A stretch of 64,000 nucleotides of DNA from a bacterium (GTDB taxonomy: Bacteria > Patescibacteriota > Minisyncoccia > Minisyncoccales > UBA10102): assembly GCA_030647485.1 (NCBI GenBank), contig JAUSJT010000004.1:109088-173087 (forward strand), written 5' to 3'. The position numbers were made by a program, and so were the translations under genes. The notes below the pieces were generated by a model. It was not told the DNA's origin. It was given only the letters and a program-made list of their open reading frames with translations, and did not search any database. Below are positions 8,115-59,273 of the stretch, piece by piece; within the stretch, counting starts at the first letter, position 1, and every line of letters starts with the position of its first letter.

Positions 8115-8125
8115 CTCTTTCTATG

Positions 8126-8277
8126 CCCCGTACGAAATTTACACAGGCATAGTCACGCGAAGCGCGAGGGGCGAATAGCCCCATCCTTTCATGGGCGCAG
8201 CGCTTCGCCAATGACAGCATGCACCTATTCGGTGCGCGCACTGCGCAATGTAATAATATGGTAAATTTCTAACGGGG
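8126..8277 (+). mobile_element. 152-bp TIR element, copy A (non-coding relative of the GIY-YIG element)
   Basis: CCCCGTACGAAATTTAC...GTAAATTTCTAACGGGG termini, flanked by TATG on both sides; near-identical to 38754-38905 and 40729-40880. Confidence 0.75.
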
Positions 8278-8278
8278 T

Positions 8279-9022
8279 ATGCATATATCGCTACGGCCAG
8301 AAATTATTGGAACACTCTTTGGCATTCCCATTACCAACAGCTTGATTCTTTCTCTTATAACCGCTTTTCTTCTTGTTGGAGGCGGTTTTTTGCTTGCGCG
8401 TTCTTTGCGGATGATCCCAGGAAAAGCGCAAAATGCCATTGAAACGCTCCTGGAAGGAATCCTCGCCTTCATGGGCCAGACATTAGGGAATAAAGAGCAA
8501 GCGAAGAAATTCTTTCCTCTTGTAGCCACCATATTCTTGTTTATCCTGTTTAATAATTGGATCGGGGTGCTTCCTGGAACCGGGTCTCTGGGATTTTTTG
8601 AAGAAAACCAAGGAGTAAGAACATTTGTTCCTTTGTTTCGTTCTGCGAACAGCGATCTCAATACCACGTTTGCCCTAGCTTTAATCTCCATGGCCGCCAT
8701 TCAGTGGTATGGAATACGAAAGCTGGGGTTCTTGCGCCATATCTCCAAGTTTCTCGTGTTCACCAAGGGCCCGATTGATTTCTTCGTGGGGATATTGGAG
8801 TTGATAGGAGAGTTCGCAAAGATTCTGTCATTCTCGTTTAGGCTATTTGGCAACATATTCGCAGGAGAGGTGCTCCTCATTATTATCATGGCCTTAGTGC
8901 CGGTCATAGTGCCCCTTCCTTTTATCATGCTGGAATTCTTTGTAGGCTTTATTCAGGCCTTGGTTTTTGCTATGCTTACGTTGATATTCTTGAAAATAGC
9001 AACAGCTGAGGTCGAGCATTAG
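8279..9022 (+). CDS. atpB: F0F1 ATP synthase subunit a
   Basis: 247 aa polytopic; ...FSFRLFGNIFAGEVLL... signature. Confidence 0.9.
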   Translation: MHISLRPEIIGTLFGIPITNSLILSLITAFLLVGGGFLLARSLRMIPGKAQNAIETLLEGILAFMGQTLGNKEQAKKFFPLVATIFLFILFNNWIGVLPGTGSLGFFEENQGVRTFVPLFRSANSDLNTTFALALISMAAIQWYGIRKLGFLRHISKFLVFTKGPIDFFVGILELIGEFAKILSFSFRLFGNIFAGEVLLIIIMALVPVIVPLPFIMLEFFVGFIQALVFAMLTLIFLKIATAEVEH

Positions 9023-12622: not shown

Positions 12623-14117
<1,495 letters not shown>

Positions 14118-21142: not shown

Positions 21143-21745
21143 ATGCATCCAAAAGAAGAACAAACGCTTGTGCTGATAAAGCCAGATGGTATTCAGCGCT
21201 CTCTCATGGGAGAGATTATTTCGCGCTATGAAAGAGCTGGATTAAAGATGGTTGGGTTAAAGATGCTTGTCCCAACTCCTGACATGATAGAGAAACATTA
21301 TACGTTAGATCCCACATGGAGGCAGAGAAACGGAGAAAAGACCATTGCGAGCTACAAGGCAAAGGGATTGAATCCGCCCTCTGAAGATCCTTTGGAGCTT
21401 TCAGGGAAAACACTAGGGAATCTGAAAAAGTATCTTTCTGCGGGACCCGTCATAGCAATGGTTTGGGAAGGAGCCCATGCCGTGGCCATAGTAAAGAAAC
21501 TCACAGGCACTACAGAGCCCTTAACTTCTGACGTAGGTACCATACGAGGAGACTTTGTGATTGATTCATACGAAATGTCAGATATGGATGGCAGGGCAGT
21601 ACGGAATCTTACGCATATGTCAGGATCTATCAAAGAGGCCGAAGAGGAGATAGGGCTTTGGTTTTCTGAAAAGGAGCTCATTTCTTACAAAGTTATTCAC
21701 GAAAAAATTCTCTACGACGTAAACCTTGACGGCATCCTTGAATGA
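21143..21745 (+). CDS. ndk: nucleoside-diphosphate kinase (long form with internal insertion)
   Basis: 200 aa; TLVLIKPDGIQRSLMGEIISRYERAGLKMVGLKM, ...TIRGDF..., NLTHMSGS. Confidence 0.85.
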   Translation: MHPKEEQTLVLIKPDGIQRSLMGEIISRYERAGLKMVGLKMLVPTPDMIEKHYTLDPTWRQRNGEKTIASYKAKGLNPPSEDPLELSGKTLGNLKKYLSAGPVIAMVWEGAHAVAIVKKLTGTTEPLTSDVGTIRGDFVIDSYEMSDMDGRAVRNLTHMSGSIKEAEEEIGLWFSEKELISYKVIHEKILYDVNLDGILE

Positions 21746-27129: not shown

Positions 27130-27201
27130 TCGGGGCAGTGGGAGTCGGACCCACCGTCACATTCACCCCAAGAATGCATGTTGCCGCTACACTATGCCCC
27201 G
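27130..27201 (-). tRNA. tRNA-Pro (anticodon GGG)
   Basis: Hand-folded cloverleaf: acceptor CGGGGCA/TGCCCCG, D arm GTGT/ACAT with GG loop, anticodon stem CATTC/GAATG with loop TTGGGGT, T arm GTGGG/CCCAC; no encoded CCA; T-loop TCCGACT is atypical. Confidence 0.75.
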
Positions 27202-27245
27202 CATTGGATTCTTTTTCAATGCAATTTCTAGTATAATAGATAAAC

Positions 27246-28025
27246 ATGAATAATGGAAGAAGGCATCCACAAGTGGTAAAAATAAGGGCACGTGAGTTGC
27301 GTAAAAATGGGTATACGCACAGAGAGATTGCAAAAACATTAGGAATCAGTAAGGGTTCTGCGCATTTATGGGCTACAGGCATTGTTTTAACATTTCATCA
27401 AAAAGAAGCGGTTGAACGAAGAAAGAATCAGCATGTTTACACTGAACAGGAGAAACAGGTGCTTCGGGAAAATCTCCGTAAAAACGTATGGCCACGCAAC
27501 ATCAAATATACAAGAGACTCATTGCTCCAGCTTATTCGAACTTTCTATAAAAAGAATGGAAGAATACCCCTGAAGAGAGAATTTAATATGTGGGGTGAGT
27601 ATAGAAGGCATTTTCAAGGATGGAACGATGCCATTAAAACAGCAGGATTTGAGCCGAATCAAGCCATTTTCTCAAAGAGGTGTTATGCGTGTGATGGTCA
27701 TATCTGCGATTCTTTTGTGGAAAAGATTTTGGATGATTGGCTTTCTTCGAAAAAGGTTCTCCATGAGAAAAATGCTCCATACGTTGGGACAAAAATGACA
27801 GCGGATTTTGCGATTGGCAACCTGCGTATTGAATATTTTGGTCTTGCAAAAGAAATGGACGGGTATGACGAGGCAATCAAAAAGAAAAGAACCCTATGTA
27901 GAAAGGAAGGGCTCAGACTTTTAGAAATATATCCCAAAGACCTTTTTTCCTCGTCGAGGGGATTCAAAAAATGTCTTGGTCAAATCCTACGAGCAGTAAG
28001 AGGCGGAACCTTATCTTTTACCTAA
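27246..28025 (+). CDS. HTH + homing-endonuclease-associated-repeat-like + nuclease-like C-terminal domain protein
   Basis: 259 aa; N-terminal RELRKNGYTHREIAKTLGISKGSAHLW (HTH); ...GRIPLKREFNMWGEYRRHFQGWNDAIKTAGFEPN; C-terminal DSFVEKILDDWL...ADFAIGNLRIEYFG resembles a restriction-endonuclease fold. Confidence 0.5.
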   Translation: MNNGRRHPQVVKIRARELRKNGYTHREIAKTLGISKGSAHLWATGIVLTFHQKEAVERRKNQHVYTEQEKQVLRENLRKNVWPRNIKYTRDSLLQLIRTFYKKNGRIPLKREFNMWGEYRRHFQGWNDAIKTAGFEPNQAIFSKRCYACDGHICDSFVEKILDDWLSSKKVLHEKNAPYVGTKMTADFAIGNLRIEYFGLAKEMDGYDEAIKKKRTLCRKEGLRLLEIYPKDLFSSSRGFKKCLGQILRAVRGGTLSFT

Positions 28026-28951: not shown

Positions 28952-29036
28952 ATAAATTTTCTTTGAAAATTTTCGGTTTCCCCCGTGTAGGAAAACAGGT
29001 CGCCTAAGGCGACCGTTAGAAACCGTGTGAGCGTAT
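28952..29036 (+). repeat. structured repeat family 2, copy 2 (rpsL leader)
   Basis: Begins after ATG 28949-28951 and ends at ATG 29037; CGGTTTC...GAAACCG outer stem, CCCCGTGTAGGAAA, variant inner hairpin GGTCGCC-taa-GGCGACC, ...GTGTGAGCGTAT. Confidence 0.7.
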
Positions 29037-29447
29037 ATGCCTACTATTCATCAGCTTTTAAAGCATCCAAGAGTAAAAGGGAAAAAGAAAGACAAAACTC
29101 CTGCCTTGACGTTTGGTTTTAACACAAAAATGAATCAGCCTTCAGAGTATGCGTCTCCTTTCAAGCGCGGGGTATGCGTGAAGGTGTTTACCACCACGCC
29201 CAAGAAGCCAAACTCTGCATTGAGAAAAGTTGCGAGAGTCAGGCTGTCTAACGGCATGGAAGTGACCGCATATATCCCTGGAGAAGGGCATAATCTCCAA
29301 GAGCACTCTGTGGTTCTGATCAGGGGAGGGAGGGTGAAAGACCTTCCTGGGGTGAGATATCACATTGTGCGCGGCGTATTGGATGCCGCGGGCATTGAAA
29401 CAAGAAAACAAACACGATCAAAGTATGGAACAAAGAGACCGAAATAG
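29037..29447 (+). CDS. rpsL: 30S ribosomal protein S12
   Basis: 136 aa; MPTIHQLLK..., ...[21 protein letters not shown]... Confidence 0.97.
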
Positions 29448-32578: not shown

Positions 32579-33772
32579 ATGGCAGAAAAATTCGACAGAA
32601 CAAAACCGCATATCAACATCGGCACCATTGGCCACGTTGATCACGGGAAAACTACCCTTTCTGCAGCCATTTTGCATGTGCTGAAGTTAAAGGGCATGAA
32701 TGTCACAGAGAAGTCTGTTGACCAGATAGACGCAGCTCCAGAAGAGAAGCAGAGAGGCATTACTATTAATATCTCGCATTTGGAGTATGAGACCGAGAAG
32801 CGCCACTATGCGCACATTGACGCTCCAGGACATGCAGACTATATCAAGAACATGATCACAGGAGCCGCTCAAATGGACGGCGCTATTTTGGTTGTTTCAG
32901 CTCCTGACGGCCCTATGCCTCAAACCAGAGAGCACATTCTCTTGGCTCGTCAAGTAGGGTTGCCTAATATCATAGTATTCTTAAACAAGTGCGATGCGGT
33001 GGATGACCCTGAAATCATTGATCTTGTAGAGTCTGAAGTCAGAGAGCTCTTAAAGAAGTATAACTTCCCAGGAGATACCACGCCTATTATCAGAGGATCT
33101 GCATTGAAAGCGTTGGAGGTGAAGTCCGCAGATGAGGAAGCCGCAAAGCCCATTCTAGAACTCATGAAGACGGTTGATGAATACTTCCCGCAACCGGTGA
33201 GAGAATTGGATAAGCCATTCTTAATGGCGGTGGAAGACGTCTTCTCTATTGAAGGGAGAGGAACCGTTGCAACAGGAAGAGTGGAACGAGGAATCGTAAA
33301 GGCAAACGAAGAAGTGGAATTGGTTGGATTAAAACCAACGTCCAAGACCGTTGCCGTGAGCATGGAAATGTTTAACAAGACCTTAGATCAGGCGCAAGCA
33401 GGAGACAATGTTGGTATTCTTTTAAGAGGAACAAAGAAAGAAGAGATTGAAAGGGGACAGGTGCTGGCAAAACCCGGAACTGTGACTCCTCACACCGAGT
33501 TTGACGCTGAAGTCTACATTCTTGCAAAAGAAGAAGGCGGAAGGCATACCCCGTTCTTTACCGGATACAAGCCACAGTTCTACTTTAGAACTACTGACGT
33601 GACAGGAGACGTTACCTTGTCTACGGGAGTAGAAATGGTTATGCCAGGGGATACAGTGAACGTGAAAGTAAAGCTTTTGGTGCCTATAGCCATGGAAGAG
33701 AAACAGAGATTTGCTATCCGTGAAGGAGGAAAGACAGTAGGAGCTGGAGTGGTTGCAAAGATCAACAACTAA
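32579..33772 (+). CDS. tuf: elongation factor Tu
   Basis: 397 aa; [22 protein letters not shown]. Confidence 0.98.
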
Positions 33773-38747: not shown

Positions 38748-38753
38748 CCTATG

Positions 38754-38905
38754 CCCCGTATGAAATTTACAAAGGTCTATACACGCGAAGCGCGAGGGGC
38801 GAATAGCCCCATCCTTTCATGGGCGCAGCGCTTCGCCAATGACAGCATGCACCTATTCGGTGCGCGCGCTGCGCTTTATAATAATATGGTAAATTTCTAA
38901 CGGGG
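38754..38905 (+). mobile_element. 152-bp TIR element, copy B (rpsS-rplV junction)
   Basis: Flanked by TATG 38750-38753 and 38906-38909; termini CCCCGTATGAAATTTAC / GTAAATTTCTAACGGGG. Confidence 0.75.
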
Positions 38906-38906
38906 T

Positions 38907-39419
38907 ATGCAAACATTGATGAGGTTACAACGAATACGAATTGCGCCCAGAAAGATGAGAATGGTTATTGATCTGGTGCGAGGAAAGAAAGTTGCTCTTG
39001 CAAGGGATGTGTTGCGTTTTAAGACAAACAAGGGAGCTAGGATTCTTTCAAAGCTTCTAGACTCTGCGATTGCGACAGCCAAGTCATTGGGACAGGGAGA
39101 CGAGTCAAATCTTATGGTATTGAAAATAGCAGTGGACGAGGGTCCAAAGTTAAAACGCTGGAGAGCTCGGGCTAAAGGATCAGCCTATGAAATCCAAAAG
39201 AAAGTTTCTCACATTACGCTTATCTTAGACGAGGTGAAGGGTGCAAAATCCGCATCAGTATCCAGGAAAGAGATAAAAACAGGACAAGAAGCTGTGAAGA
39301 AAGATCAAGTTGCGATAAAGACAGAAAAGCCTAAGTTTAAGGCTGTATCTAGCGAGCTCAAGACTTCAAGGACTGAAAAAGGAGTTCAGAGATTCTTTAG
39401 GAAATCAGGAGAAAAGTAG
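38907..39419 (+). CDS. rplV: 50S ribosomal protein L22 with Lys-rich C-terminal extension
   Basis: 170 aa; ...RIAPRKMRMVIDLVRGKKVALARDVLRF..., ...RWRARAKGSAYEIQKKVSHITLIL. Confidence 0.93.
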   Translation: MQTLMRLQRIRIAPRKMRMVIDLVRGKKVALARDVLRFKTNKGARILSKLLDSAIATAKSLGQGDESNLMVLKIAVDEGPKLKRWRARAKGSAYEIQKKVSHITLILDEVKGAKSASVSRKEIKTGQEAVKKDQVAIKTEKPKFKAVSSELKTSRTEKGVQRFFRKSGEK

Positions 39420-40558: not shown

Positions 40559-40738
40559 ATGAACATCGCTGAACTGCGGCAAAAATCAAAAGGGGAGTTG
40601 CAGGAGTTCCTTCAAGGGCAGAAAGAAACACTGCGTCAACTTAGGTTTGATCTTGCTGCGGGAAAAGTAAAAAACGTGCGTCAGATAAGACAATTGAAAA
40701 AAACAATAGCACAAATACTAACCGTATGCCCCGTATGA
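40559..40738 (+). CDS. rpmC: 50S ribosomal protein L29 (stop codon supplied by the inserted element)
   Basis: 59 aa MNIAELRQKSKGELQEFLQGQKETLRQLRFDLAAGKVKNVRQIRQLKKTIAQILTVCPV*; below the ORF-track cutoff. Confidence 0.88.
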   Translation: MNIAELRQKSKGELQEFLQGQKETLRQLRFDLAAGKVKNVRQIRQLKKTIAQILTVCPV

Positions 40739-40880
40739 AATTTACAAAGGTCTATACACGCGAAGCGCGAGTGGCGAATAGCCACATCCATACAGGGGCG
40801 CAGCGCTTCGCCAATGACAGTATGCACCTATTCGGTGCGCGCACTGCGCTATGTAATAATATGGTAAATTTCTAACGGGG
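40729..40880 (+). mobile_element. 152-bp TIR element, copy C (rpmC-rpsQ junction)
   Basis: Flanked by TATG 40725-40728 and 40881-40884; carries the compensatory GTGGC...GCCAC variant of the GGGGC...GCCCC hairpin. Confidence 0.75.
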
Positions 40881-40881
40881 T

Positions 40882-41115
40882 ATGCCCAAAAAACAATTAA
40901 CTGGCATTGTGGTGTCAGACAAAATGCAAAAGACCATTGTGGTAGAGGTTGAACAATGGCATGTGAACTCAAAGTACAAGAGGAGATTTCGCATGCACAA
41001 AAAGTACAAAGCCCATGATGAGAAAGGAGAATACAAAATAGGAGACACGGTTGTTATTGAGGAATCAGTCCCTATTTCAAAAGATAAGAAGTGGAGAGTT
41101 ATTTCCAAGGCGTAA
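40882..41115 (+). CDS. rpsQ: 30S ribosomal protein S17
   Basis: 77 aa; ...LTGIVVSDKMQKTIVVEVE...HKKYKAHDE...GDTVVIEESVPISK. Confidence 0.95.
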   Translation: MPKKQLTGIVVSDKMQKTIVVEVEQWHVNSKYKRRFRMHKKYKAHDEKGEYKIGDTVVIEESVPISKDKKWRVISKA

Positions 41116-48645: not shown

Positions 48646-48734
48646 ACGATCACATGGTTTCCCCCGACCCCCCTCTTTTCACAACCCTTGGTTTTGAATA
48701 ATTTCCTACACGGGGGAAACCACAAATTTATTAC
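48646..48734 (-). repeat. structured repeat family 2, copy 3 (inverted orientation, tpiA 3' flank)
   Basis: Reverse complement reads GTAATAAATTTGTGGTTTCCCCCGTGTAGGAAATTATTCAAAACCAAGGGTTGTGAAAAGAGGGGGGTCGGGGGAAACCATGTGATCGT. Confidence 0.75.
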
Positions 48735-48741
48735 ATAAATT

Positions 48742-52734: not shown

Positions 52735-53811
52735 ATGCTGCTTGTTGATTTTGGAGAAAGCACCTGCAAGTTCGCTCTTGTGAAAGAATATGAAAAGAGC
52801 CTCGAGGTGCAAGAATGGGGGATAGAGGATATCCGCTCTTTAGAGTATGCAGCAGAGCATATCCTTGAGAGGATGAAAGGCGTGCATGGAGATATGGAGC
52901 CCGTCTTTGTAAGCTTGCCCGCCACCCTATGGAGATCGCGTGTATTGTATGAGGGAATAGAGAGGAAGAACGCGGCCTTGCGCATTGACTCTGCAGAAAA
53001 AGAAACCATCCTCGAAGGTCTTTTTGCGAGGACGCGCTCATCGCTCAAGGAACAGGTGCAAGATTCCTCTGGAATCCTCGCAGAGGACGTAAGTATCCAA
53101 AAGTTGCAGATCCTTAAGTACACGATTGATGGATACCATGTGCAAGACATTTTGGGCTTTCCGGGAACACACCTGGATGTTCAGATTATGGCAGTGTTTG
53201 CTCTTGTAAAGCATCTCCCTATCGTGGATAATATAATACAGAGGTTCTCTAGTATCTCTTCCCCCCGTATTGTTCATCTTGCAGAAGCCCTTGAGGGCTT
53301 TTCTCAAACGAGACCGCAGGACGCAATATACATTGATATGGGGGATGCATTCACCCGGATTATCGCGACGCAGCAAAAACGTGTTGCATTCGTTGACGAA
53401 GTTTCTCGCGGAGGCAGGGATTTCACGCTCTATCTTCAAGAGACCCTTTCTCTGGGAGAGAATACTGCAAAAGATTTTAAAGAACGGTATGCCTCAGGCG
53501 ACTTCTCGTTTCCCTTGAGGGAAGCGGTAAAGGAAGGATTCCTAGCCATAGCAGAAGATCTTGCACGTCTTGTATGTAAGAGTTTGCGCAGTACCAGGGT
53601 ATCTCTTCCTTCTTCTATTTTCCTTTTTGGAGAAGCCAGCAAGCTTCCAGAAATTGAAAAAGCCTTTCTAGGCAACATCTTTGAAGGATTGCCATTCCAC
53701 GAGAAGCCCCGCATCTCGTTCTTGCTGCCAAAGGATCTCTGGACCTTGGAGTTCCCCGGCAAAACAAATCCCGTCTTCACTCCATTATTTTTCTTGCCTT
53801 ATGCCCCGTAA
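52735..53811 (+). CDS. divergent FtsA/PilM-like actin-fold ATPase (stop codon supplied by the GIY-YIG element TIR)
   Basis: 358 aa; phosphate-1-like LLVDFGESTCKF, phosphate-2-like IYIDMGDAFTRI, SRGGRDFT, IFLFGEASKLPEI. Confidence 0.5.
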   Translation: MLLVDFGESTCKFALVKEYEKSLEVQEWGIEDIRSLEYAAEHILERMKGVHGDMEPVFVSLPATLWRSRVLYEGIERKNAALRIDSAEKETILEGLFARTRSSLKEQVQDSSGILAEDVSIQKLQILKYTIDGYHVQDILGFPGTHLDVQIMAVFALVKHLPIVDNIIQRFSSISSPRIVHLAEALEGFSQTRPQDAIYIDMGDAFTRIIATQQKRVAFVDEVSRGGRDFTLYLQETLSLGENTAKDFKERYASGDFSFPLREAVKEGFLAIAEDLARLVCKSLRSTRVSLPSSIFLFGEASKLPEIEKAFLGNIFEGLPFHEKPRISFLLPKDLWTLEFPGKTNPVFTPLFFLPYAP

Positions 53812-54088
53812 CATTACATCGGTAGTGTTCTTCTACGTCTATGTACTTTTGAGTTTGAAAGATGGAAACCATTATGTAGGATATACTACTGACTTGAGAA
53901 AGAGAATAGAAGAACACAAGAAGGGGCTGGTGTTCTCGACAAAAACACGAAGGCCCCTCACACTTATCTATTTTGAGGGTTGTCGAAATGAACAAGATGC
54001 TAAACAGCGCGAGCGATACCTCAAGATGACTATTGGTCGCAGATGGCTTGGCACAAGATTGAGGAATTTTAATAAAAAACTGATGTAA
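53801..54088 (+). CDS. stand-alone GIY-YIG nuclease-domain protein (95 aa)
   Basis: MPRNITSVVFFYVYVLLSLKDGNHYVGYTTDLRKRIEEHKKG...ERYLK; ATG is the left TATG copy and TAA lies inside the right TIR; the ORF-track start at 53681 is an extension into the upstream gene. Confidence 0.8.
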   Translation: MPRNITSVVFFYVYVLLSLKDGNHYVGYTTDLRKRIEEHKKGLVFSTKTRRPLTLIYFEGCRNEQDAKQRERYLKMTIGRRWLGTRLRNFNKKLM

Positions 54089-54098
54089 TGTTACGGGG
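53804..54098 (+). mobile_element. 295-bp GIY-YIG element with perfect 17-bp TIRs and TATG target duplication
   Basis: CCCCGTAACATTACATC (53804-53820) / GATGTAATGTTACGGGG (54082-54098); TATG at 53800-53803 and 54099-54102. Confidence 0.7.
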
Positions 54099-54099
54099 T

Positions 54100-55356
54100 A
54101 TGCAAAAAAAGAAAGTTCGTGATATTCTTCCTCCCAGGCGTGTCAAGGCGCACGAGCCTGAAAAAGCAACTCCATCTTCTCTCGTGCAGCGTTCCCCACA
54201 AAGAACCCCTAGGAGAATGCTGTTTTTTCTACTCTTTGTCGTGCTCATAGGAGGAATTACAGGGGTGCTTAGCCTCCACTTCTTTTTTGCCAAGGTCTGG
54301 ATTATCGTCCACCCGTACACAAGAGAGGTAACTGCCAAAGCGTCTATGACTGCCCGTGCAGGAATTGAGGGAACAGATATTGAAAAGAGTATCTCCGCAT
54401 TGATTATTAATGAAGAGAAGTCATTGACCAGACTATTTCCTGCGACAGGGATATCTACCGAGGAAGGAAGAGCTCGGGGCACCATACGGGTATTCAACGG
54501 ATTCTCCACGTTTCCTCAAAAATTAGTCGCGCAGACACGATTTCTTTCAGAAGACGGGAAGCTATTCCGTTCTCCAGGAGCCGTGGTGGTACCCGCAGGG
54601 CGTATGGAAGGAGGTAGCATTATTGCGGGATTCCTTGATATTGAGGTTGTAGCCGCAGAATCCAAAGAGGAATACAATATTGGACCTTCTAATTTTTCCC
54701 TTCCTGGACTCTTTGGGAATCCCGCATATACGACCATAACTGGAAAATCATCTGAACCTATGACTGGCGGGTCAAAAACGGAAGTTTCCGTTGTAACAGA
54801 ATCTGATTTGAATGCTGCACGGGATGCTCTTATGGCAGAGTTGCAGCAAGACGTGCGAGAATCCCTGGAGGGCAAGGTGCCAGAGGGTATGATATTGCTT
54901 TCTGACGCAGTAGACCTCCGGGTTGTTCAGGCGTCTTCACCTATCAAGGCAGCAGCTCCGTTAGACAATTTTAATTTCTCTGTGAAAGTCCAGGGAGTAG
55001 CCATAGTTTTTTCCAAGGCCGATGTTGAGAACGCAGCCAAAACGCTTCTTGCCAACCTTACAGAAGGGGGAGAAAAAATAGCCGAACGGGCCGATTCAAT
55101 AGAGTACGAAAACGTGGAAATGAATATGAGCGCCCAGAGCCTTTCTTTTGACATGAGAGCGTCCACGAGGACCTACAAAGAGATTGACCCTGTTGAATTC
55201 AAGGCGCGCTTAGCGGGGATATCAAAGGATGAGGCGGCTTTAGCGCTTTCCTTAAATCCCAGCCTGCAAAAAGCAGAGATTCTTTTATTTCCCTTCTGGC
55301 TTACATATCTCCCCCAAGACCCCAATAAGGTGGAGGTTAGCATAGTTATTGACTAG
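54100..55356 (+). CDS. hypothetical membrane-anchored protein
   Basis: ATG of the right TATG copy (MQKKKVRD...); one N-terminal TM ([20 protein letters not shown]); no family recognised. Confidence 0.6.
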
Positions 55357-59208: not shown

Positions 59209-59273
59209 AGAGGGGGTCGGGGAGATTGGGTATCTCCCCGTGTAGGAAATTATTCAAAACCGAGGGTTTTGAA
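59209..59273 (+). repeat. structured repeat family 2, copy 4 (permuted: 3' half precedes 5' half)
   Basis: AGAGGGGGTCGGGGA + gattgggtatc + TCCCCGTGTAGGAAATTATTCAAAACCGAGGGTTTTGAA. Confidence 0.65.

Follow-up and report, generated by a model that had tools for sequence, protein, structure and literature searches.

A 295-bp unit that holds one gene, for a 95-residue GIY-YIG nuclease, between perfect terminal inverted repeats (TIRs) occupies precisely the start codon of one host gene in a Patescibacteriota bacterium (Minisyncoccales, UBA10102), where the TATG of this codon stands on both sides of the unit. It lies in a stretch of 64,000 nucleotides (GenBank assembly GCA_030647485.1, contig JAUSJT010000004.1, positions 109,088 to 173,087 of the forward strand), hereafter called the window, and positions are numbered from the first letter of this stretch. 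A sequence-only reading of the window had proposed that the unit is a mobile element, and this is upheld by empty sites in relatives, by insertions in front of unrelated host genes and by near-identical copies within one genome. We consider it probable that it is a very small element of the insertion sequence (IS) type, with inverted ends and a duplication of the start codon, which is moved by the GIY-YIG protein with the help of the host. It belongs to a large family in ultra-small bacteria of the candidate phyla radiation (CPR) that is apparently undescribed.

Anatomy of the unit and its empty site

The two ends of the unit are perfect reverse complements over 17 of 17 bases, and when up to three mismatches are allowed in the 17-mer this pair is the only one in the window, in which 0.12 matches are expected by chance. 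The unit affects both neighbouring host genes (Table 1). The upstream gene now ends at a TAA that comes from the left inverted end (CCCCG-TAA junction), and the stop of the nuclease open reading frame (ORF) is separated from the ATG of the downstream gene by 11 nt. Direct reading confirmed every coordinate given in the sequence-only reading for the TIRs, the TATG on both sides and the 295-bp unit; likewise, the reading frames bear out the single 95-residue ORF between the left ATG and the TAA within the right TIR, the upstream ORF which ends in ...LPYAP* and the 418-residue ORF opened by the ATG of the right TATG. The FtsA-like label given to the upstream gene was not confirmed, as the protein has no Pfam match and only a marginal match to PilM (E=0.9).

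To find loci without the unit, homologues of the downstream 418-residue protein were searched and their contigs were then read. Two of them, with 84% (L085) and 72% (L087) identity, show the gene order of the window, alaS, a 360-residue gene, a 418-residue gene and infA. Their junction reads ...TTTTTCTTGCC(G/T)TATGCAAACAAAGAA..., with a single TATG and an overlap of 23 nt between the two genes in the middle. The window locus is equal to a junction of this type plus the 295-bp unit and one additional TATG; thus, the overlapping junction that had been predicted by removing the unit and one TATG is matched exactly, including the altered C-terminus of the upstream protein, which has 361 residues in L085, where it overlaps the next gene, and 358 in the window. 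A further relative with 77% identity (L086; 2460-2500 and 1-99) does not contain the upstream 358-residue gene and shows a relic, TATGCCCCGTACTGAAAATATG, before the downstream gene, which may be a footprint or may have arisen when the sequence between two elements was deleted. At its edge, this locus also contains a gene for a Y1 transposase (PF01797).

Table 1. Features of the nuclease element, its host genes and the miniature elements in the window.
Feature	Position	Strand	Remarks
Left target copy, TATG	53800..53803	+	ATG 53801-53803 is the original start of the host gene, now start of the nuclease ORF
Element body, 295 bp	53804..54098	+	Absent from orthologous loci
Left TIR, CCCCGTAACATTACATC	53804..53820	+	Codes for nuclease residues 2-7 (PRNITS)
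Nuclease ORF, 95 residues, stand-alone GIY-YIG, UPF0213/Slx1-like clade	53801..54088	+	
Right TIR, GATGTAATGTTACGGGG	54082..54098	+	Holds the ORF stop TAA 54086-54088
Right target copy, TATG	54099..54102	+	ATG 54100-54102 opens the host gene
Upstream host gene, 358 residues	52735..53811	+	C-terminus changed from ...LPYAKKESS* to ...LPYAP* through the insertion
Downstream host gene, 418 residues	54100..55356	+	Its start codon is the target; orthologues 72-84% identical without the element
Miniature element, 152 bp	8126..8277	+	TATG 8122-8125 and 8278-8281; right ATG opens an atpB-like gene
Miniature element, 152 bp	38754..38905	+	TATG 38750-38753 and 38906-38909; right ATG opens rplV (L22)
Miniature element, 152 bp	40729..40880	+	TATG 40725-40728 and 40881-40884; right ATG opens rpsQ (S17)

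Recurrence in relatives and use of the start codon

A scan of one genome per species for relatives of the nuclease gene gave at least 566 of them; the 80 best loci, mostly from Patescibacteria (CPR) genome bins, were kept and sorted by scripted plus manual reading. The query of this locus search was an alignment of 14 closer sequences. Ends that start with CCCnGTA and are directly flanked by a start-codon duplication were found in 67 of the best 80 loci, a share that the query biases upward, as weighed below, and the same anatomy is present on four metagenome contigs; the TIR and (T)ATG flanks are thus a recurrent property of the gene family. In these 67 loci the order is (T)ATG, CCCnGTA ends and (T)ATG, with an ORF that runs from the left ATG to a stop about 10 nt ahead of the host ATG, and across the family the inverted ends comprise 17-24 bp. 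Two loci are ambiguous, and 11 loci, which belong mostly to bins of Bacteroidota, Ignavibacteriota and Nitrospirota, show another inverted repeat without a clear duplication. The four closest metagenomic homologues (L001-L004, 79-92% identity) are each located before a different gene, and all show TATG/CCCCGTAnnATTACATCAr ... yTGATGTAATnnTACGGGG/TATG, in which the differences from end to end are partly compensatory. Furthermore, copies in the same bin were found before different genes, with 97.7% identity between L036 and L042 and 94.6% between L070 and L073. In L007 a nuclease element and a 138-bp miniature element are arranged in tandem with one TATG in common, and in L081 a miniature element is nested within the nuclease ORF.

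The duplicated flanks were scored by script in 60 loci of the CPR type (56 of the 80, the window and L001-L003). TATG is the flank in 37 loci, ATG in 11 and ATGA in three, one locus shows each of TGGA, TGCAA and TGGG, and six have imperfect flanks. In addition, L015 shows TGTG on each side, that is, a duplicated GTG start codon. The flank differs between insertions and agrees within one, which argues for a genuine target duplication of 3-5 bp and not for a fixed part of the element. The duplication length (3, 4 or 5 bp) differs even between the 97.7%-identical L036 and L042. The earlier claim of a 4-bp TATG duplication therefore holds in that the duplication is real and TATG is its commonest form; however, its length ranges from 3 to 5 bp, and the targets are start codons, GTG included. 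The only conserved sequence around the insertions is T-ATG.

The right-hand start opens an ORF of at least 60 residues in 47 of 50 complete cases (median 272 residues). Among the 47 loci with a (T)ATG flank, 42 have a nuclease ORF of full length (92-106 residues) from the left ATG, and the stop is found inside the right end, with a gap of 7-13 nt, mostly 9-11 nt, to the host ATG in 32 of the 47. These counts bear out the proposal that the element integrates on a start codon, reads its own ORF from the host's start and returns an ATG to the host gene. As the ORF starts at the left ATG and stops in the right end, the proteins begin with MPRNITS or MPSNTTS and finish with ...AGS*, which are translated ends of the element. 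In the commonest subfamily the ORF stop is the TGA in GTTGATATAC, and this may explain why the ends show a conserved mismatch of 3 nt (positions 8-10). In L071, L076 and L079 the duplication begins at TG, and a GTG start is remade from the last G of the right end and this TG; the ORFs regenerated in this way have 167, 151 and 52 residues, respectively. All coding elements have the same orientation as their host gene. Insertion would place the host gene behind the nuclease in a tightly coupled pair of cistrons, and the host gene would still be translated, with little harm.

The window contains 538 TATG sites, 83 of them intergenic, and all four of its elements are on start-codon TATGs. Much of this siting, perhaps not all of it, would be explained by a sequence preference together with the survival of those insertions that are expressed and do no harm. 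As to the genome itself, few Shine-Dalgarno sequences are seen in the window, and many genes have TATAAT about 7 nt ahead of the ATG, as in leaderless mRNAs; 30 of the 72 predicted genes start with TATG and 60 of the 72 lie on one strand.

Other observations concern particular loci. The start codon of mutM (MPELPEVE...) holds a GIY-YIG element in three different genome bins (L026, L034 and L067), which could reflect ancient vertical inheritance or a recurrent target. In Galbibacter sp. EGI 63066 (L063 and L065, about 2430-2860), a different inverted repeat, ACCCATGAAAT.../...ATTTCATAGGT, is present, and the nuclease has on one side an N-terminal fragment (..ILITGGAGF) and on the other a complete copy of a gene encoding an NAD-dependent epimerase. 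In the Bacteroidota loci L069 and L084 the right repeat codes for the C-terminal ..FTG*, and no simple duplication was seen in the Bacteroidota loci.

Miniature elements, end pairing and the GIY-YIG protein

The three 152-bp elements of the window (Table 1) are small and non-coding and have inverted ends and a target duplication, as do related metagenome elements, and these are features of transposable elements of the miniature inverted-repeat kind (MITEs); the 295-bp element is coding and so is not a MITE. The three copies are 89-93% similar and their similarity ends precisely at the TATGs. The element at 40729-40880 provides the TGA, inside its left end, at which the upstream rpmC now stops, and its internal hairpin carries a compensatory change from GGGGC/GCCCC to GTGGC/GCCAC. 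The source population was also assembled independently, and this assembly is broken within the MITE at rplV, 25 nt ahead of this gene, as happens to assemblies at repeats. The sequence-only reading had related these elements to the nuclease element by a common CCCCGTA terminus and TATG target; the elements, the terminus and the target are real, but the MITEs are in a different subfamily of end sequences.

A metagenome scan with the end pattern of the window MITEs, CCCCGTWNGAAATTTAC, gave many chance single matches, and only elements with both ends were used, in 120 loci among the matches listed. At least 66 pairings of an end with a complementary partner were obtained. The genuine ones comprise about 46-166 bp, most with duplications of 4-5 bp; five pairings of 671-2,403 bp were taken as chance, as they show no duplication. 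Within the window, a match to ACGGGGTATG at 33545 was also rejected as chance, being inside a long minus-strand ORF. MITE insertions were found at three kinds of site. A TGAA duplication at ATGAA starts changes the host start to GTG, and several of these copies add an in-frame N-terminal extension; TTTA/TAAA is duplicated at the G/FT site of type IV pilin genes, where the element provides a new MKK..FLTG leader; and TTGA is duplicated at TTGACA -35 boxes, where the right-hand copy restores TTGACA. L140 belongs to the family of the window MITEs and has the opposite orientation to its host gene, which indicates that orientation is fixed for coding elements only. In L031 and L043 a MITE and a nuclease element of the same genome have lineage-specific end variants in common (CAACCCC; GTAAGACCAACTTTG) and unrelated interiors, which by analogy would be the usual relation of a MITE to its autonomous partner.

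All coding elements that were found to have these ends encode GIY-YIG proteins. A tblastn search of GIY-YIG proteins against the 120 MITE-holding metagenome loci found nothing, and among these same matches listed there is no convincing IS-sized element with these ends and the target duplication; in addition, no transposase-sized element of this kind is present in the best 80 genomic loci. No known RNA family is involved, as Rfam 15 matched nothing in the window at gathering scores or in the MITE at E≤10.

Several repeats and ORFs were noted beside these elements. MITEs with ends CCCCGTTAGAAATTTAC occupy the prepilin G/FT(L/V)IE site, with duplication TTTA, in L092, L104, L111, L159, L171 and L194, and the right end of the L171 copy codes for a new in-frame leader, MKKTKKFLTG. 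The MITE family of pilin-site elements, ATGAA starts (TGAA) and TTGACA -35 boxes (TTGA) includes L110, L125, L136, L140, L142, L180 and L197 as well as L116, L134 and L153, and several copies at ATGAA starts add an in-frame ATG with an extension that ends in ..ISNG-V. In L003 (330-440) and L004 (1-100), a palindromic miniature-like element ACCCCGATAGTGTT...AACACTATCGGGGT with GC-rich internal hairpins is located immediately upstream of a promoter, which is followed by a GIY-YIG element. The window also contains a second repeat family, GTTTCCCCCGTGTAGGAAA...GGGGGAAAC, at 12631-12724, 28967-29040, 48646-48739 (minus strand) and, as a partial copy, 59236-59273; the first three copies are followed by a conserved tail of the tgtgtgatcgt type just ahead of a start (atpD, rpsL and one minus-strand ORF). 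This family may represent a common leader or promoter module, or a further hairpin element with a CCCCG stem core. The ORF at 27246-28025 encodes a Pfam HNH_repeat domain, which is associated with homing endonucleases, and in the divergent intergenic region beside it TATGCCCCGCA (27193-27203) resembles a decayed left end. Finally, a nucleoside diphosphate kinase ORF at 21143-21745 encodes 200 residues, longer than usual, and matches Pfam NDK in two stretches; it may carry an N-terminal extension or insertion.

To analyze covariation between the two ends, the first 22 nt of both ends were aligned in 50 distinct elements. Changes on both sides were found at 20 of the 22 positions, in 131 cells compared with 38±5 in shuffled data, and none of 500 shuffles reached 131. 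Pairing falls from 79% to 24-47% when the partner is slid by one to three columns. Position 4 is freely variable (A-T in 34, C-G in eight and G-C in seven elements) and is complementary in 49 of the 50. A base-paired intermediate of the two ends, as a single-strand fold-back or a cruciform, is the simplest explanation for a position that is free and always matches its partner. G-T combinations are no commoner at the ends than other mismatches, which argues against selection on an RNA helix. This Watson-Crick covariation implies that the two ends would pair with each other. The RNA fold of the nuclease element has a z-score of -7.7 and that of the 152-bp miniature element -5.9, and the 152-bp elements fold as a panhandle with internal GC-rich hairpins.

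The 95-residue protein matches Pfam PF01541 with E=1e-15 and 58.3 bits, against a cut-off of 22.6, and is thus a member of the GIY-YIG superfamily, as had been read from its motifs. A profile of 38 homologues retrieved the UPF0213 proteins BH0048 (1zg2, E=7e-12) and EF2693 (1ywl, E=4e-8), followed by SLX1 (E=2e-5). The AlphaFold2 model has a predicted local distance difference test score (pLDDT) of 91.6, and the nearest structures according to Foldseek are 1zg2 and Slx1 nuclease domains, ahead of UvrC and I-TevI. The protein, a stand-alone domain of about 90-100 residues with its nearest sequence and fold there, belongs to the UPF0213/YhbQ-Slx1 clade. Residues Y14, G27, R35, H39 and E71 are among those invariant in the 38 homologues, and putative catalytic roles are assigned to them by homology. 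The family comprises 6,654 clusters at 50% identity with E≤0.001 and 931 with E≤1e-10. Viral contigs contain only four weak partial relatives, with 21-31 residues aligned, which indicates that the family is not phage-borne. The match to TIGR01453 (group I intron endonuclease) has 23.5 bits, below the cut-off of 56, so the protein does not fall among the I-TevI-type enzymes; it has 95 residues and no additional domain, in particular no C-terminal DNA-binding domain of the I-TevI type. Furthermore, homing enzymes have a single long specific target without duplication, whereas the present element occupies dozens of unrelated host genes with duplications of 3-5 bp.

Mechanism, rival explanations and related systems

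Judged in the ISfinder sense, the element shows terminal inverted repeats, a direct duplication confirmed by the empty site and several copies at different sites in one genome (L036/L042 and L070/L073). However, it encodes none of the recognised kinds of transposase (DDE, DEDD, HUH, serine or tyrosine), the sole ORF being GIY-YIG. We infer that the nuclease drives the movement and that the element would in this sense be autonomous. The Slx1-like protein of 95 residues would recognise the stem formed by the paired ends and cut at its base, it would also nick the target with a short stagger, and host ligation and gap repair would complete excision and insertion and so create the duplication; we hold this sequence of steps to be about evenly balanced or slightly favoured. 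The same protein would also move MITEs in trans. A stem of paired ends is in keeping with the cutting of branched and stem-loop DNA by Slx1, and a duplication length that varies even among copies that are nearly identical is easier to reconcile with integration driven by a nuclease than with the fixed synapse of a transposase.

Several points weigh against this proposal. We know of no GIY-YIG enzyme that acts as a DNA transposase, and GIY-YIG enzymes hydrolyse DNA and cannot rejoin strands, so that a host ligase or repair must be assumed. The protein is a catalytic domain of 95 residues without an evident DNA-binding module, and it does not readily account for the choice of an empty target, as T-ATG is all that is conserved around the insertions. 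The genome was seen over 64 kb, and a conventional transposase is possibly encoded elsewhere in it; one related locus, L086, does contain a Y1 transposase gene. The sequence that the window MITEs and the window nuclease element have in common is limited to the terminal CCCCGTA/ACGGGG (7 bases). The proportion of 67 in 80 loci is inflated because the query included the N-terminus that the left end encodes, and in Bacteroidota the relatives differ in their inverted repeats and show no clear duplication.

Some of these points would be accounted for if the unit were a real transposable element moved in trans by a conventional transposase encoded elsewhere, either a Y1 HUH enzyme or a DDE enzyme that makes duplications of 4-5 bp; the GIY-YIG protein would then be a long-standing passenger or a selfish helper, for instance one that cuts empty alleles and so favours copying of the element. 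Inverted ends with short duplications are the classic DDE signature, MITEs show that the ends alone suffice in cis, and the lack of known strand joining by GIY-YIG enzymes, the Y1_Tnp gene of L086 and the inspection of 64 kb of the genome point in the same direction. However, no transposase-sized element with these ends and the duplication was found in the 120 metagenome loci (among the matches listed) or the 80 genomic loci, and no transposase is present among the 10 otherwise unassigned ORFs of the window that were scanned. The ORF is fused to the ends, which are both coding, and has been kept intact over about 70 genomes, which is unusual for cargo; the duplication has 3, 4 or 5 bp, even between L036 and L042, and the strict complementarity at a free position fits pairing of end with end better than separate recognition by a protein. 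We regard movement by such a transposase as unlikely.

Two explanations without transposition have a far lower probability. GIY-YIG is a classic fold of homing endonucleases, whose free-standing genes are found between genes in T-even phages (PMC2677866), and the sub-threshold match to TIGR01453 (23.5 bits against 56) is weakly in line with a free-standing homing endonuclease gene that cuts the empty allele of the same locus in the DNA of another cell and is copied by homologous repair, its repeat being an expression or insulation signal. This is very improbable, since the targets are dozens of unrelated genes with only (T)ATG in common, the duplications vary, MITEs have the same ends, near-identical copies are at different loci of one genome, the protein of 95 residues has no DNA-binding domain as such homing enzymes do, and viral contigs hold four weak partial relatives only. 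Hardly more credible, and if anything less so, is a cassette that serves the host, in which an mRNA stem would act as a processing or translation-control signal, or the protein would be a domesticated repair nuclease, and the repeats would be structures at the RNA level. The unit is always co-transcribed with the host gene, the RNA folds of element and MITE are very stable, and the constant gap of about 10 nt from stop to start suggests a tuned translational coupling; however, presence or absence at one locus among close relatives, insertions before unrelated genes, MITEs in both orientations (L140 compared with the window copies), almost no G-U pairs in the covariation and no Rfam match speak against this role. 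An integron attC cassette was also considered and rejected, as the repeats are placed on both sides of the ORF and not behind it, and the element is not part of an array at an attI site.

The proposed nuclease-driven element resembles several known systems in part. Bacterial ISs and MITEs (Correia/NEMIS; IS630, IS5 and IS1380, with 2-5-bp duplications) are alike in their inverted ends, short duplications and several copies, and also in the empty sites of relatives and in non-coding miniatures with common ends. In contrast, the sole ORF is here a GIY-YIG protein of 95 residues and not a DDE, HUH, serine or tyrosine transposase, the coding element has about 0.3 kb in all, in most copies the target duplication provides the start codon of the ORF, which has none of its own, and the duplication has 3-5 bp with ends that co-vary as if paired. 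The smallest autonomous ISs known to us have about 0.6-0.7 kb. UPF0213/YhbQ proteins (1zg2 and 1ywl) and the nuclease domain of Slx1 are similar in sequence, fold and small stand-alone size; however, Slx1 needs Slx4 and has an additional RING/PHD domain. UPF0213/Slx1 proteins are regarded as housekeeping or repair factors, and we know of no description of them as bounded by inverted repeats.

The IS200/IS605 family and the REP/RAYT system (REPIN) also have very small elements and recognise DNA secondary structure, the former at a short tetra- or pentanucleotide target and the latter with abundant non-coding hairpin derivatives. However, they have a Y1 HUH transposase, a hairpin of its own at each end and no duplication; the present element has complementary ends, duplicated flanks that vary and no Y1 gene, and so belongs to neither. 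Penelope-like retroelements, to our knowledge the only well-known mobile elements with a GIY-YIG integration nuclease, also have duplications of variable length from staggered nicks, but they are eukaryotic and encode a reverse transcriptase, whereas the present element has no reverse transcriptase and is bounded by inverted repeats of DNA. The free-standing GIY-YIG homing genes (I-TevI type; Seg and Mob of T4-like phages) are likewise selfish nuclease genes between host genes and co-transcribed with them; in contrast, the present elements have no DNA-binding domain, show inverted ends, a duplication, many unrelated targets and MITEs, and are chromosomal in CPR bacteria instead of phage- or intron-borne. 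The arrangement described for fractured genes (PMC2677866) differs from that of the present element.

A search of the full-text literature available without subscription found neither bacterial GIY-YIG genes bounded by inverted repeats nor start-codon-targeting elements, and the phrases 'GIY-YIG transposase' and 'GIY-YIG transposon' are absent from the literature searched. The surmise that such elements had not been described thus stands. The anatomy is that of an insertion sequence; what is new lies in the enzyme, in the size and in the way of life on start codons. There is about as much for as against the wider proposal that these elements form a new class of prokaryotic transposon, in which a sole protein of about 95 residues, of the Slx1/UPF0213 type, would act on the fold-back or cruciform of its own ends with ligation and repair by the host. 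They would then be the smallest autonomous elements known (about 0.3 kb) and start-codon specialists, which take over the initiation signal of the host and return it by translational coupling, and the wider UPF0213 family would consist largely of such elements or of their domesticated descendants.

If the nuclease mobilises the element, GIY-YIG would join DDE, HUH, serine, tyrosine and Cas1 as a chemistry of prokaryotic DNA transposition, a new lower size limit would be set for an autonomous element, and thousands of small genes annotated as 'GIY-YIG nuclease family protein' or UPF0213 (6,654 clusters) would gain a function. Experiments are feasible, as relatives are present in cultivable Bacteroidota (Galbibacter, Tangfeifania and Psychroflexus), and an insertion system with a short site and a specific orientation might serve as a tool. 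In the annotation of CPR genomes, start-codon calls and N-terminal extensions are systematically distorted by these elements, and assemblies break at these repeats. Regardless of the enzyme, they represent a strategy for life in compact genomes, in which a start codon is borrowed and duplicated and the element's own ORF is ended about 10 nt ahead of that of the host.

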